Notes under the pieces: model-generated
What the model saw: only the letters and a program-made list of their open reading frames with translations
Databases searched by the model: none
Told to the model about the DNA's origin: nothing
Assembly: GCA_037440105.1 (NCBI GenBank)
Contig: JBBIUS010000001.1
Coordinates: 28,945 to 92,944 of the forward strand
From: Candidatus Falkowbacteria bacterium
GTDB taxonomy: Bacteria; Patescibacteriota; Patescibacteriia; XYB2-FULL-38-15
Reading direction: 5' to 3'
Length of the DNA: 64,000 nucleotides
Made by a program: the position numbers and the translations under genes
Shown: positions 2,354 through 58,735 of the stretch, in pieces
How the letters are laid out: each line of letters begins with the position of its first letter
Position numbering within the stretch: position 1 is the stretch's first letter

Positions 2354-4156
2354 TTATTTCCACGGCTCGCATCCCGGCGGAAGATTCCCATCTGGTCCAA
2401 CAATACACTTTTTTCCCCCTCCTGGCCCTTCCGGCTCAAAAAAACAGTTTTGATAAACATCTTTTACGCCATGGGTAACGCGAGGATAATACATGACTGT
2501 TTCTGGACTAACCAAATTACCATCAGCACAAGTTCCGCCGGTTGGAATAAAATTCCCATGATAAATCGCGGCCTTTGTTTTGGCTGCCACATCGTCAGGA
2601 GAATCTACCGGCGTACCATCTTCTTTCAAATTTATTCCACCTAAATAAAACCAAACAGCGCATTCGTCCCTTTGATTATCCTCCAAAATTATGTTTTCTG
2701 AATTAAAACTACCAATGCTCATTATCTTCGAAAAAAACATTTCAACCGGCACATTAAAGGCCGCACCTGATGTGTTTGGAGAAGGACTGACATTTTCAAT
2801 TTCTGGCGGGGCTAAATCAATTGTGTTGTTAGTGCTAAAAGAAAGGCCAAAGTTATCAACTCCTGAAATTTCATCCAAATCTGACCCTTGCGCTGTACCA
2901 TCTTTGTTGCCGTCCAAAGAATTGCCAGCTGCATCAGTAACCCCATCATAAGGCCAAAGAGCCTCTGGCGGCGACTCACTCAAGGTTGCGGCCAAAATCA
3001 AAACGTCAATTCTTTCATCACCCGGCAAACAAAAAACATCTCCACCGCATGAATTTGTTCCGCATTTATCATTAGTTATAAATTCCACTGTCTTGTATTG
3101 ATTAGCGATTGACCATCGCCCAGAAATTGGACTGCCATCGGCTTTTTTAACTTCAATCTTATCAAAAAATGTTGGCCATTCTCCGGTAACTGTTGTCGGG
3201 TCCATTGCCTCGTCAAAATTAATTTGAATTAGGGCATTTCGCGCCACTGTATCTCCTTCATTTGGCCAGACGCTCTCAACTTGCGGCGGGGTTGTGTCAA
3301 CAAAAGTGCTTACTTCAAAATCCCAAAGGTAACCGCCGCGAAAAGCGCCGACAAAGGCGTCAGAACCATCGGATTTCCGAATACCTGGCTTCAGAGCCAC
3401 TGTATACCAAATGTTTTCTGAAGGACTGCCTAAAAGATCGTCTGGATCAAAAACAAAAGTTTTCAAGTCAGAAGTAAACATCACTTTAACTTGGTTATCT
3501 GCCAATGCGTTGATTTCTCCGTCAATTGATTTATAAATTTTTACATTCTCGCTGTTCAAACCACCCCAATCATCAGCCAAATTATCAGGTGTGCCGTTAT
3601 CATTATAATTGGTTATGATGCTTTCGCGCGTTACTGATTCTCTAAAAGTAACAATAATTTTTGTATTTCTGCTAACGCCAGTCGCGCCGCGGGCTGGCCA
3701 ATGACTTTCAATTATTCCATTACCTAAAGAACTAGAAAGTTGCTCAACAACTGATGGACCGCCGGGAATGCCGGGCCCAAGCACGCCTGTTACTTCTATT
3801 AGTTTATTTAAAACAAACTGAGTAATACCAAAAGAAAAGACAATAATAATTAAACCAATTAAACCATTAGTTAAAATCTTTTTCGCTTTTGCAATCCGTT
3901 CTTCATTGCCGGCTGAGGTCATCCAGGCAAAACCGCCGTACAAAACAATTATTAAGGCAATAATTCCTAAAAAACCTAAAGCTGCCCTAATAATTCGGGC
4001 AGCAATAATCCGCGGGTCCTCTCCGGGCAAAGTGATTTCTTCACCAACTGCATTAATACCAAGTTCTTGAGCGAAAATGGTTTGAATAAATAAAAAACTG
4101 GCCGTGAATAAAAACAGTACCAAGAAAATTTTCAAAATTTTCTTTTTCTTCTCCAT
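2354..4156 (-). CDS. Surface protein paralog: signal/TM + TrbC/VirB2-like pilin hairpin + Ig-like (SbsA/Big-like) domains, 600 aa
   Basis: ORF track. The first ~125 aa are about 75% identical to the neighbouring 1-2263 protein (DPRIIAARIIRAALGFLGIIALIIVLYGGFAWMTSAGNEERIAKAKKIL). The rest is beta-rich extracellular-type sequence. Confidence 0.85.
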   Translation of the reverse strand: MEKKKKILKIFLVLFLFTASFLFIQTIFAQELGINAVGEEITLPGEDPRIIAARIIRAALGFLGIIALIIVLYGGFAWMTSAGNEERIAKAKKILTNGLIGLIIIVFSFGITQFVLNKLIEVTGVLGPGIPGGPSVVEQLSSSLGNGIIESHWPARGATGVSRNTKIIVTFRESVTRESIITNYNDNGTPDNLADDWGGLNSENVKIYKSIDGEINALADNQVKVMFTSDLKTFVFDPDDLLGSPSENIWYTVALKPGIRKSDGSDAFVGAFRGGYLWDFEVSTFVDTTPPQVESVWPNEGDTVARNALIQINFDEAMDPTTVTGEWPTFFDKIEVKKADGSPISGRWSIANQYKTVEFITNDKCGTNSCGGDVFCLPGDERIDVLILAATLSESPPEALWPYDGVTDAAGNSLDGNKDGTAQGSDLDEISGVDNFGLSFSTNNTIDLAPPEIENVSPSPNTSGAAFNVPVEMFFSKIMSIGSFNSENIILEDNQRDECAVWFYLGGINLKEDGTPVDSPDDVAAKTKAAIYHGNFIPTGGTCADGNLVSPETVMYYPRVTHGVKDVYQNCFFEPEGPGGGKKCIVGPDGNLPPGCEPWK

Positions 4157-35099: not shown

Positions 35100-35177
35100 T
35101 GAAATTTACAAAAAATAGCATATAACATTCTAGTGCGGCCGCGCTAGAATGTTATTTGTGCTTCTCTCCCCTGTCTT

Positions 35178-57140: not shown

Positions 57141-57176
57141 TAATAAAAGGGTCTAAACAAAATGCGTTTAGACCCC
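57141..57176 (-). terminator. Intrinsic terminator after the 56-aa sORF
   Basis: gggtctaaac-n7-gtttagaccc followed on the minus strand by TTTTATTATT. Confidence 0.75.
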
Positions 57177-57198
57177 TGCCGGGTTAGTGGCATTGGAA

Positions 57199-57369
57199 TT
57201 AGCAGCCAATTTTTCCTACGAAGCAGAAAAGAAAATGCGCTTCTTTTTCTTTTTCTCTTGGCTCTGGTAAAAATGAACCGCCGTTTTCATTCGTCTTAGA
57301 TGTTTTTCTGATTTTTTCTTCGCTCTCATGAGGCTGCTGTCCATTGTTTCCTCGGTCCTCCTTCTTCAT
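57199..57369 (-). CDS. Unannotated 56-aa hydrophilic sORF
   Basis: Hand translation: MKKEDRGNNGQQPHESEEKIRKTSKTNENGGSFLPEPREKEKEAHFLFCFVGKIGC. GGAAGGAGGG lies 5 nt before the ATG. It falls below the 60-aa ORF-track cutoff. Confidence 0.55.
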   Translation of the reverse strand: MKKEDRGNNGQQPHESEEKIRKTSKTNENGGSFLPEPREKEKEAHFLFCFVGKIGC

Positions 57370-57398
57370 TTTTCCCTCCTTCCAATAAAAAATGGCCT

Positions 57399-57434
57399 AA
57401 AAAACAAGACCGCTCCGGATTTCGTCGGAGCGGT
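57399..57434 (-). promoter_or_regulatory. Leader terminator hairpin with an upstream antiterminator partner (57468-57477)
   Basis: ACCGCTCCG-n8-CGGAGCGGT + CTTGTTTTTT. TCGGAACGGT upstream pairs 9/10 with the 5' arm. Confidence 0.6.
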
Positions 57435-57542
57435 TTTAAAATTTCAATTTATTTTATAAACTTAAAAACCGTTCCGACAATTTCGGAGCAAAAAAGAAAA
57501 ATAAAAAATATTGTTTTTTAATTTCCTGCATATTGCATCTCT

Positions 57543-57570
57543 ATAATAACAAAACTAATCTTTTTGTCAA
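57543..57570 (-). promoter_or_regulatory. Sigma-70-like promoter TTGACA-16-TATTAT
   Basis: The minus strand reads cTTGACAaaaagattagttttgtTATTATag. Confidence 0.6.
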
Positions 57571-57624: not shown

Positions 57625-58239
57625 CTATTCTTTTATCCCGTCTAAATTAACATCGTATAAAATCTGATCATGAATTAGTCTGTAACTTAAAATTTCTTCT
57701 TTTTTAAACCAAATAGCAATTTCTTTTTCTGCTTCCTCAACACTGCCTGAGGCATGAATTAAATTGCGGATTGCCCGACCATCTAAATCACTCATATCGT
57801 ATGAATCAATCGTAAAATCCCCTCGAATTGTCCCAACGTCAGAAGTTAATGGTTCTGTACCGCCAGTAATTTTTCGAACAATGCCAACTGCTTTATTCCC
57901 TTGCCAAATCATTGCTACTACTGGACCAGTAGTCATATATTTTTTAAGCCGCGCTAAAACTGCCCGACCACATTCTTCAGGTTTCTCAAAAGGCGGCTTT
58001 AATCCTTTGCTTTCATAAGAAGCAATCGACTTCTCACCAACTTTTCTTATCCACTCAGGATCAACTGTATAGTGTTTTTCTATCGTCCCTTCTGAGGGAA
58101 TAAGCATTTTTAGAGCCGTAAGCTTTAAACCCGTTCTTTCATACCGGCGAATAATCTCCCCAATTAAGGCGCGCTGCACGCCGTCTGGTTTTATAATAAC
58201 CAATGTTCTTTCCTTTTTTGGATGATTTGGATTGTTCAT
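57625..58239 (-). CDS. ndk: Nucleoside diphosphate kinase (long form, 204 aa)
   Basis: ERTLVIIKPDGVQR, active-site NLIHASGS. Confidence 0.92.
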   Translation of the reverse strand: MNNPNHPKKERTLVIIKPDGVQRALIGEIIRRYERTGLKLTALKMLIPSEGTIEKHYTVDPEWIRKVGEKSIASYESKGLKPPFEKPEECGRAVLARLKKYMTTGPVVAMIWQGNKAVGIVRKITGGTEPLTSDVGTIRGDFTIDSYDMSDLDGRAIRNLIHASGSVEEAEKEIAIWFKKEEILSYRLIHDQILYDVNLDGIKE

Positions 58240-58305: not shown

Positions 58306-58335
58306 AAATAAAAAACTGCGCATATTTGCGCAGTC
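58306..58335 (-). terminator. Intrinsic terminator after the 63-aa sORF
   Basis: ctgcgca-n4-tgcgcag followed on the minus strand by a T run. Confidence 0.75.
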
Positions 58336-58353
58336 CATTTTTTCTGGTGCACC

Positions 58354-58545: not shown

Positions 58546-58579
58546 GATTCCCTCCTTTCAAAAAATTTTTCTTCTTAAA

Positions 58580-58608
58580 ACAAAAACTGACCGTTTTATA
58601 GCGGTCAG
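58580..58608 (-). promoter_or_regulatory. Leader terminator hairpin with an upstream antiterminator partner (58630-58641)
   Basis: CTGACCG-n8-CGGTCAG + TTTTTGTTTT. AGCGGTTAGTTC upstream pairs 12/12 (one G-U) with GAACTGACCGCT, which contains the terminator 5' arm. Confidence 0.6.
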
Positions 58609-58706
58609 TTCAATCATTAAAATAAAAATGAACTAACCGCTTTGGTCAGCAATAATGCAAATTAAAACTATGCTGTCTCTTTTTACTGTGGAAAACATAC
58701 GCTAGA

Positions 58707-58735
58707 ATAATAGCAAAAAATATTTTTAAAGTCAA
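58707..58735 (-). promoter_or_regulatory. Sigma-70-like promoter TTGACT-17-TATTAT
   Basis: The minus strand reads TTGACTttaaaaatattttttgcTATTAT. Confidence 0.6.

Follow-up and report, generated by a model that had tools for sequence, protein, structure and literature searches.

A probable leader-peptide attenuator ahead of an orphan small gene behind ndk in a Patescibacterium

Results

The ndk locus and its small downstream gene

We examined 64,000 nucleotides (nt) of DNA from a Candidatus Falkowbacteria bacterium (Patescibacteriota; assembly GCA_037440105.1, contig JBBIUS010000001.1, positions 28,945 to 92,944), hereafter the window, in which two units of similar layout flank ndk on the minus strand. 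Module 1 lies downstream of ndk and ends in an open reading frame (ORF) of 56 codons, the small ORF sORF1; module 2 lies on the other side of the gene and ends in sORF2. The ndk gene itself (57625-58239, minus strand; PF00334, E = 1e-39) is served by a promoter at 58291-58263, and it lacks a separate terminator ahead of the module 1 promoter. As an earlier note on this DNA had claimed, the minus strand carries a near-consensus promoter at 57570-57543, in which a -35 box TTGACA (57570-57565) is separated by a 16-nt spacer from a TG-extended -10 box TATTAT (57548-57543). This promoter agrees with 11 of 12 consensus positions and is the top promoter match between 56000 and 60000. The remaining parts described in that note are likewise in place. 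An intrinsic terminator at 57399-57434 (ACCGCTCCG-ACGAAATC-CGGAGCGGT, then CTTGTTTTTT; -17.7 kcal/mol) is built on a GC-rich hairpin, ACCGCTCCG / CGGAGCGGT (57434-57409), with seven GC pairs among its 9 base pairs (bp). It is followed by a Shine-Dalgarno (SD) sequence, GGAAGGAGGG, at 57374-57383, by the hydrophilic sORF1 (57199-57369, ATG at 57369, 56 amino acids) and by a closing terminator of 13 pairs with a T-rich tail (57147-57177). The gap between the first terminator and the SD is too short for a promoter, a point of the earlier note that we uphold.

Between 56000 and 60000 we counted 14 terminator-like sites, compared with 3.0 +/- 2.2 in shuffled sequence, and in the whole 64-kb window only two terminators, those of the two modules, precede an SD and an ORF of this small size. 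A third terminator (35123-35154, plus strand) has a weak SD-like match 50 nt off and a 42-codon frame. A search of 5.8 billion proteins with sORF1 returned the query alone, and the sole other contig carrying this ORF is identical to the window. Run SRR11582170 is the source of the sORF1 contig. Neither sORF1 nor sORF2 has a match in Pfam, NCBIfam, PADLOC or PHROGs.

A short ORF and three alternative pairings in the module 1 leader

The earlier reader overlooked one short ORF in the leader of each module. In module 1 it comprises 25 codons and a TAA stop (57454-57531, minus strand), encodes MQEIKKQYFLFFFFAPKLSERFLSL and begins MQEIKKQ-YFLFFFF-AP. Codons 8-14 of the 25 (57490-57510) form the run TAT TTT TTA TTT TTC TTT TTT, or Y F L F F F F, which stops 2 nt 5' of the first of four pairing segments (segment 1); the next codon for Pro, CCG, lies within segment 1, and the stop codon falls just 3' of segment 2. 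The ORF has no SD, and its ATG stands 11 nt past the -10 box. SD-independent initiation seems common in this genome, and initiation on the SD-less leader ORF is plausible because in about 60% of the window's 61 long ORFs a GGAG or GAGG core is missing near every candidate start and because the ndk 5' untranslated region (58262-58240) is AU-rich and SD-less; both sORFs, by contrast, carry near-perfect GGAGG boxes. A further, out-of-frame ATG at 57537, 4 nt past the -10 box, opens an ORF of six codons (57537-57517; MQYAGN) which overlaps the start of the leader ORF. This ATG is confined to the window copy, which has a 3-nt insertion there, and it could compete with the leader ORF if transcription starts at it.

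Three mutually exclusive pairings (1:2, 2:3 and 3:4) can be drawn in this leader which, together with the promoter and the intrinsic terminator, bear out the attenuator layout proposed in the earlier note. Segments 1 and 2 form a small hairpin (57473-57487; TCCGA-AATTG-TCGGA), with the Pro codon CCG in segment 1 and a folding energy of -7.2 kcal/mol for the 1:2 region. Segment 2, TCGGAACGG, can pair instead as an antiterminator 2:3 (57424-57479), in which TCGGAACGGTTTTTAAGTTTA... is matched by the 5' arm of the terminator together with the stretch upstream (...TTTTAAAACCGCTCCGA). The terminator is 3:4. Both elements that the note had singled out, TCGGAACGGT at 57477-57468 on the minus strand and the competing TCCGA-n5-TCGGA (57487-57473), are present. 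The leader as a whole folds with z = -4.9 relative to dinucleotide shuffles, none of 200 folding as well. With segment 1 masked and segment 4 absent, the antiterminator reaches -21.1 kcal/mol compared with -6.8 +/- 2.4 in shuffles (0/200 as low). The equilibrium fold in the leaders of both modules nests 2:3 within 1:4, and so all four segments are mutually complementary. When a ribosome was represented by a mask on the window sequence, the minimum-energy fold was the antiterminator with the ribosome at the FF codons and the terminator with the ribosome at the stop codon.

No Rfam family reaches its gathering threshold anywhere in the window, and the matches at E <= 10 are all sub-threshold. 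The best informative match to module 1 is Phe_leader (RF01859), which aligns over the full model length at 30.9 bits (E = 0.013 over 2.3 kb and 0.001 over 181 nt); this is under the cutoff of 55 bits, and module 1 is therefore not a member of that family by sequence. A Tetrahymena snoRNA model scored marginally above it (31.8 bits, cutoff 100) and was treated as a chance match.

Orthologous leaders conserve an aromatic codon run

The closest relatives of ndk occur in metagenome-assembled genomes (MAGs) of Patescibacteria and are 80-83% identical, one of these genomes being labelled Candidatus Falkowbacteria. Orthologous leaders were collected by four routes, namely ndk synteny, a pattern that ignores the ORF, the neighbours of a gene family described below (gene A) and a covariance model. 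We thereby obtained 14 distinct full-length leaders from Patescibacteria MAGs and contigs, each directly after ndk. With blastn the module 1 leader, without sORF1, was found directly after ndk in the three closest genomes, and a metagenome scan for segment 2 and the terminator only, with the ORF excluded, added two further leaders; the other nine of its 11 matches were chance matches on unrelated, GC-richer contigs. The neighbours of the gene A family supplied the remaining leaders, and the covariance model then extracted all 14. Over 54 ndk loci this model found no further copies, and the sub-threshold matches that we inspected (L038 and L002) are plain terminators.

Eight leaders could be aligned on their promoters. 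In these the TTGA of the -35 box and a TAnnnT at 16-nt spacing are kept while the spacer sequence varies, and the -35 box reads TTGAC except in L062 (TTGATC). The leader ATG lies 7-8 nt past the -10 box in all eight and 11 nt past it in the window, spacings which suggest leaderless initiation.

All 14 leaders keep the ATG and encode exactly seven variable codons and then Y-F-x-F/L-[F/W/Y]-F-F-x-P, with Leu for Pro in L074. Codons 8, 9, 13 and 14 are invariant as amino acids, with synonymous TAT/TAC changes, and codon 11 specifies Phe except in L002 (Leu), with synonymous TTT/TTC changes; codon 12 is TTC, TGG, TAC or TAT, and thus aromatic throughout, and codons 10 and 15 vary at all three positions. 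That the conservation follows codon phase argues for translation of this ORF. In the eight leaders that were measured, the stop codon begins 13-22 nt past the point where segment 2 starts. In the window a 1-nt insertion after the Pro codon alters the frame and hence the peptide tail, with the RNA segments intact. Since the frame shifts while the RNA segments stay conserved, the peptide tail appears to be dictated by RNA structure, and the aromatic run by coding constraints.

The same codon pattern bears on a second explanation, in which the attenuator depends on translation but its signal is not the supply of aminoacyl-tRNA: the aromatic-rich nascent peptide YFxFWFFxP would itself arrest the ribosome, and the candidate triggers would be a small molecule within the exit tunnel, in the way that free Trp acts on TnaC, an antibiotic that targets the ribosome, by analogy with the erm and cat leaders, or general translation stress. 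Position 12 is held to an aromatic residue (F, W or Y) and not to a Phe codon, Tyr 8 is invariant and Pro 16 is present in 13/14 leaders, a pattern resembling selection on the peptide and not on codon identity alone; the cargo genes, moreover, are unrelated to Phe metabolism. However, the conservation of Pro has an explanation at the RNA level because the CCG codon is part of segment 1, where the CTG of L074 retains a U-G pair. The peptide would be 16 residues long at the putative stall site, and most known arrest peptides are longer. Module 2 (see below) has apparently swapped Phe for Ile codons with the architecture kept, a change that is a better fit to the sensing of codon supply. Arrest by the nascent peptide is the foremost rival reading of the signal, and we regard it as unlikely.

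The alternative pairings are kept in all leaders

The earlier note had looked to conservation of the alternative pairings in homologous loci, and they are kept in 14/14 orthologous leaders. The nascent 2:3 helix, folded under a mask on segment 1 and before segment 4 exists, has an energy of -13 to -22 kcal/mol in every one of them (shuffles about -6.5 +/- 2.4), and the terminators range from -16.5 to -23 kcal/mol. Across the 14 leaders, 91% of cells are paired in the proximal 12 bp of 2:3 and 96% in 1:2 and 3:4 together (89% in hairpin 1:2 and 98% in terminator 3:4 when counted separately), compared with at most 57% in slid controls. The distal part of the 2:3 helix has subgroup-specific sequences that retain the folding. 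In L002 a C-to-T change in segment 2 is matched by a G-to-A change in segment 3, such that 2:3 is kept and 3:4 is broken. Two pairs of 3:4 have changes on both sides, and 0/500 shuffles reach the score of this helix; such counts can arise from relatedness alone.

This conserved three-way pairing is also what would be expected of an RNA sensor, in which one of the two structures, antiterminator or terminator, is stabilized by a metabolite, a tRNA or a protein and the short ORF plays no role, and in relatives a further long conserved hairpin downstream could bind such a factor. The earlier note had named a riboswitch as one form of its proposal. That reading is unsupported because no aptamer was found with Rfam and because the conserved part of the leader behaves as coding sequence, a codon-phased short ORF with a conserved aromatic run. 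Against any RNA sensor, there is no Rfam family at threshold and no T-box or riboswitch match even at E = 10, and what is conserved outside the stems is the aromatic codons, in frame. Upstream of segment 1 lies a variable, unstructured open reading frame; its part ahead of the aromatic codons varies freely, and yet the frame there stays open and constant in length, with an ATG at a set distance from the promoter. Nor do the leaders contain a conserved multi-helix junction or internal loop that might serve as a ligand pocket. We hold a sensor of this kind to be highly improbable.

Small acidic genes behind the leader in relatives

Downstream of the leader the relatives share a common order of a long covarying hairpin, gene A, gene B and a conserved terminator, which in at least seven of the loci examined is followed by a tRNA-Pro(GGG). 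The leader precedes an SD-led gene A on the same strand in all 13 related loci, with no visible promoter between the two, and a GGAAGGAGG box precedes gene A in L002, L062 and L067. The proteins carried as cargo are tiny and acidic: A has 55-79 amino acids and the motif IPxGREMTxEEQxxFLxxLFAxxIG, and B has about 53 amino acids and the C-terminus ...ERVGYGF (...GYGP in some). Family A has 15 representatives among 1.84 billion protein clusters. Searches of Pfam, NCBIfam, PADLOC and PHROGs returned nothing for representatives of A and B, and a search of the PDB with the family A profile gave nothing significant. A and B are fused in three family proteins, P0002 (L002), P0008 (L067) and P0019, which suggests that they act together. 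Two of these fusions (L002 3834-4142 and L067 2501-2815) have 102-104 amino acids and end in ...GWGKVTGHGC. For a fused A-B protein AlphaFold predicts, at low confidence, two helices and a disordered tail (mean predicted local distance difference test 64, predicted template modelling score 0.25).

The window copy has neither the long hairpin nor gene B, and the relation of sORF1 to gene A is faint. Its match to the family A hidden Markov model (HMM; 2.1 bits) is not significant, and hhalign gives the sORFs probabilities of <1% against family A. The summed local-alignment score between sORF1 and family A, 625, exceeds those of all 500 shuffles (470 +/- 36), with NENGGSFL-PEPREK--EKEAHFL-FCFVGKIG aligned to DENGDEILIPEGREMTVEEQVRFLAWLFADSIG, and for this reason we read sORF1 as possibly, and at best, a truncated and diverged member of the family. 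The earlier note had expected the small ORF to be conserved in frame. Taken literally it is not, there being no homologue of sORF1 in the database searches; we nevertheless consider the regulatory element real despite its diverged cargo, because the leader is conserved before a small gene family in relatives.

These loci also bear on whether regulation is present at all. Module 1 might instead consist of two independent, unregulated genes, a small RNA (sRNA) of about 135 nt and/or a hydrophobic micropeptide of 25 amino acids, with sORF1 leakily expressed or no gene. A terminated leader RNA would exist in any case and could act in trans, as rnTrpL of Sinorhizobium does (PMC6614838). That sORF1 and sORF2 are orphans, and that the downstream hairpin and gene B have been lost from the window copy, would also agree with this proposal. 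Yet the antiterminator is as stable as the terminator in 14/14 leaders, which is unexpected for a simple sRNA terminator; the constant position of the leader ahead of gene A in the 13 related loci, with no visible promoter between them, also speaks against it; and the C-terminus of the peptide is not conserved where the frame shifts while the RNA is, contrary to expectation for a functional micropeptide. The free-standing sRNA that the earlier note had offered as its alternative may exist as a by-product of termination, and the conserved antiterminator disfavours an unregulated one. We judge two unregulated genes to be very unlikely.

The leader terminator probably also ends ndk transcripts, because the leader-bearing ndk loci have no terminator of their own and because in L038, a more distant relative, ndk is followed only by a terminator (3655-3692; AAACCGCCCCGATGAAAATCGGGGCGGTTT) near-identical to that of the module 1 leader. 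This leader terminator may also have served as the base from which the attenuator arose.

Two further features of the relatives' loci were noted. In 13/13 relatives a hairpin of about 20 bp stands between the leader terminator and the gene A SD (L001 2292-2350, L003 3768-3815, L068 358-408; likewise in L062, L065, L067, L071, L074, L078, L079, L081 and L083). The spacer containing it folds at -22 to -36 kcal/mol, with subgroup-specific sequence and preserved pairing, and in several relatives the gene A SD itself lies in the loop of a small CCC...GGG hairpin. These hairpins may constitute a second regulatory or stabilizing element. In addition, L068 (930-1130) contains an intact tRNA-Pro(GGG) between the two halves of a second tRNA-Pro-like sequence, and in L069 (685-730) a GC-rich hairpin interrupts the D-arm of tRNA-Pro, where ARAGORN finds no tRNA; these oddities may reflect either insertions into the tRNA gene or an error of assembly.

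Module 2 on the other side of ndk

The earlier note had stated that the same architecture recurs beyond ndk, and the parts of module 2 indeed follow in the same order from 58735 to 58313 on the minus strand. Its promoter (58707-58735) consists of TTGACT, 17 nt and a TG-extended TATTAT and agrees with 10/12 consensus positions. The leader ORF (58633-58698; 21 codons and TAG) encodes MFSTVKRDSIVLICIIADQSG, and its ATG stands 8 nt past the -10 box. A run of Ile, Val and Leu codons (58671-58651; ATA GTT TTA ATT TGC ATT ATT, or I-V-L-I-C-I-I) extends up to the 5' edge of segment 1, and segment 2 (GCGGTTAGT) contains the TAG stop codon. Hairpin 1:2 (58632-58650) is formed by GCTGACC / GGTTAGT. Segment 2, GCGGTTAGTTCA, can form 12 bp with the 5' arm of the terminator, TGAACTGACCGC; this 2:3 hairpin has an energy of -19.0 kcal/mol, compared with -4.7 +/- 2.0 in shuffles (0/200). 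An intrinsic terminator (58575-58611; hairpin 58611-58584 and a T-run; -14.5 kcal/mol) is followed by the SD GAAAGGAGGG (58559-58550), by sORF2 (58545-58354; 63 amino acids) and by a closing terminator found in the terminator scan (58313-58336). Against dinucleotide shuffles the fold of this leader has z = -3.8, and in masked folds the leader behaves as module 1 does, with the position of the ribosome selecting the antiterminator or the terminator.

Homologues of sORF2 were sought among 5.8 billion proteins and the search returned the query alone; membership of family A was rejected for it (HMM score -0.6 bits, and no similarity by summed local alignment). No orthologue of module 2 is present between ComEC-MBL and ndk in L001-L003. 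Searches by blastn and by stem pattern yielded L014 alone, where the likeness is limited to the stems. L014, a relative that is 70% identical, carries an attenuator-like unit near ndk (3562-3957) in which a short ORF has the aromatic run NFWFSLYF and GGTCGGTCT pairs with the terminator 5' arm AGACTGACC, followed by an SD, a hydrophilic ORF of 61 amino acids and a terminator. Its stems are akin to those of module 2 and its overall sequence similarity is weak.

The two leaders of the window resemble one another more than chance would suggest. They align at a score of 19 compared with 3.6 +/- 4.4 for random genomic segments, of which 3/2000 reach 19 (the maximum of 142 implies that at least one overlaps a module), and module 2 scores lower, at 2-11.5, with the leaders of relatives. 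The alignment is in frame and places TAT TTT TTA TTT TTC TTT TTT GCT over ATA GTT TTA ATT TGC ATT ATT GCT. These similarities suggest that module 2 arose as a duplicate of module 1 and then diverged, with TTT codons changing to ATT through first-base T-to-A substitutions and all four stem segments being replaced in concert.

Discussion

The sequence anatomy, the conservation of the ORF and of the pairings and the energetics of the folds, all directly observed, indicate that module 1 is probably a ribosome-mediated (leader-peptide) transcription attenuator of the trp/phe/ilv kind. It is best read as a unit in which a Phe-type run within an overlooked 25-codon frame would govern the formation of a terminator ahead of sORF1, a tiny gene with no annotated function. 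From the sequence we infer, as follows, where transcription starts, that the leader ORF is translated, which signal stalls the ribosome and in which direction regulation runs. Transcription would begin at, or a few nt before, the ATG of the leader ORF and, because this ORF has no SD, its initiation would be leaderless or nearly so. Were translation to proceed smoothly through Y-F-L-F-F-F-F to the stop codon, the ribosome would cover segment 2, the terminator 3:4 would form and the transcript would end as a leader RNA of about 135 nt. When charged tRNA-Phe (and Tyr or Trp) is scarce, the ribosome would stall on the Phe/aromatic codons and cover segment 1 only, leaving segment 2 to pair with the terminator 5' arm (antiterminator about -21 kcal/mol); with this structure formed first, RNA polymerase would continue into the strongly SD-led sORF1. 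Module 2 would act alike through its Ile/Val/Leu codon run.

Several observations weigh against this interpretation or limit it. The module 1 transcription start is placed by promoter match; the window ATG follows the -10 box at 11 nt compared with 7-8 nt in relatives, and the out-of-frame ATG at 57537 is nearer to the expected start. In masked folds of the eight relatives with a correctly placed ribosome mask (L065, where the mask was misplaced, was left out), five keep the terminator at equilibrium despite a masked segment 1, and therefore the switch must be kinetic, that is co-transcriptional, as it is for the trp operon. At -4 to -12 kcal/mol the 1:2 hairpin is weak, which makes the default state in the absence of translation uncertain. 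Covariation is likewise weak, since the stems scarcely vary: in 2:3 a single pair has changed on both sides, and the score of this helix is reached by 103/500 shuffles and is not significant. Nothing connects the regulated genes with the metabolism of Phe or Ile, both sORFs are orphans, and module 2 has no comparative support. Finally, an effect of the nascent peptide and tRNA starvation account equally well for the conserved Pro and for the conserved position that is aromatic and not strictly Phe.

Compared with described systems, the element belongs to a mechanism already known, of which it forms a new sequence family, and entails no new principle. As in the enterobacterial pheA leader (pheL; Phe_leader) and the trp, his, leu and ilv leaders, a short leader ORF carries a run of Phe codons, here ending ...F-F-x-P. 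Four segments with mutually exclusive 1:2, 2:3 and 3:4 pairings and an intrinsic terminator precede the regulated gene, and the stop codon is positioned such that a terminating ribosome masks segment 2. What is unusual is that the leader peptide is likely leaderless, that the host is a Patescibacterium and that orphan microproteins are the targets in place of amino-acid supply genes. Classically, the leader ORF of an attenuator has its own SD. In contrast to Phe_leader, the module 1 leader ORF is SD-less, with its ATG 7-11 nt past the -10 box, and one position of its run may be Trp, Tyr or Phe; the host is a Patescibacterium and not, as for pheL, a proteobacterium. The targets differ too, being acidic proteins of 50-100 amino acids and not biosynthetic, tRNA-synthetase or transporter genes. 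Riboswitch and T-box leaders share the terminator/antiterminator platform in a 5' leader, but here there is no aptamer, specifier loop or T-box sequence and the sensor is a putatively translated ORF. Groups of leader-peptide attenuators have been described (PMC3082878), and in mycobacteria leaderless short ORFs with amino-acid runs (polycysteine, the 'Cys ribulon') act as attenuators (10.1101/834739). Like those, the unit described here has an unannotated, putatively leaderless small ORF as first cistron, with a single-amino-acid run, whose stalling would remodel the RNA and turn on downstream genes, and its promoter-ATG spacing is compatible with a leaderless start of that type. Unlike in the Cys ribulon, where the next gene's ribosome-binding site is controlled at cysteine-metabolism loci (10.1101/834739), the competing structure is an intrinsic terminator with a T-run, not a helix that sequesters a ribosome-binding site, and the targets are unrelated to the amino acid sensed. 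Module 2 recalls the ilvBNC and ilv-leu leaders of Corynebacterium glutamicum (PMC11857589) and Staphylococcus aureus (PMC5794164) in its Ile/Val/Leu-rich peptide (S-I-V-L-I-C-I-I), its three alternative hairpins and its terminator, but no ilv or leu genes lie downstream; as a single sequence without orthologues, it is assigned to branched-chain amino acids by its anatomy.

The cis-regulatory RNA of the Candidate Phyla Radiation is almost unexplored, and the top matches of a full-text literature search include no paper that ties Patescibacteria to attenuators or leader peptides. For annotation, the lesson is that promoter-adjacent ORFs of 20-25 codons should be checked before a riboswitch candidate is named. 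If our interpretation is true, the oldest known RNA-based sensing mechanism works in these reduced genomes in a leaderless form, and an attenuator has been wired to tiny orphan proteins instead of to biosynthesis. The units would also provide a natural case of an attenuator being re-targeted between amino acids by codon substitution and would assign a condition of expression to an otherwise uninterpretable family of microproteins.

More broadly, and tentatively, we propose that a lineage of Patescibacteria may use leaderless leader-peptide attenuators as sensors of aromatic and branched-chain amino-acid supply which switch on lineage-specific microproteins (A, B, sORF1 and sORF2), with the Phe sensor having been duplicated and re-specified to Ile within this genome. 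We take this lineage to be an amino-acid auxotroph that lacks the corresponding biosynthesis, and such sensors could then constitute a minimal starvation response, perhaps aimed at the host or at dormancy. The attenuators would thus give a handle on how these cells sense an amino-acid supply that presumably comes from their hosts, and a concrete way into the study of how the Candidate Phyla Radiation senses starvation.

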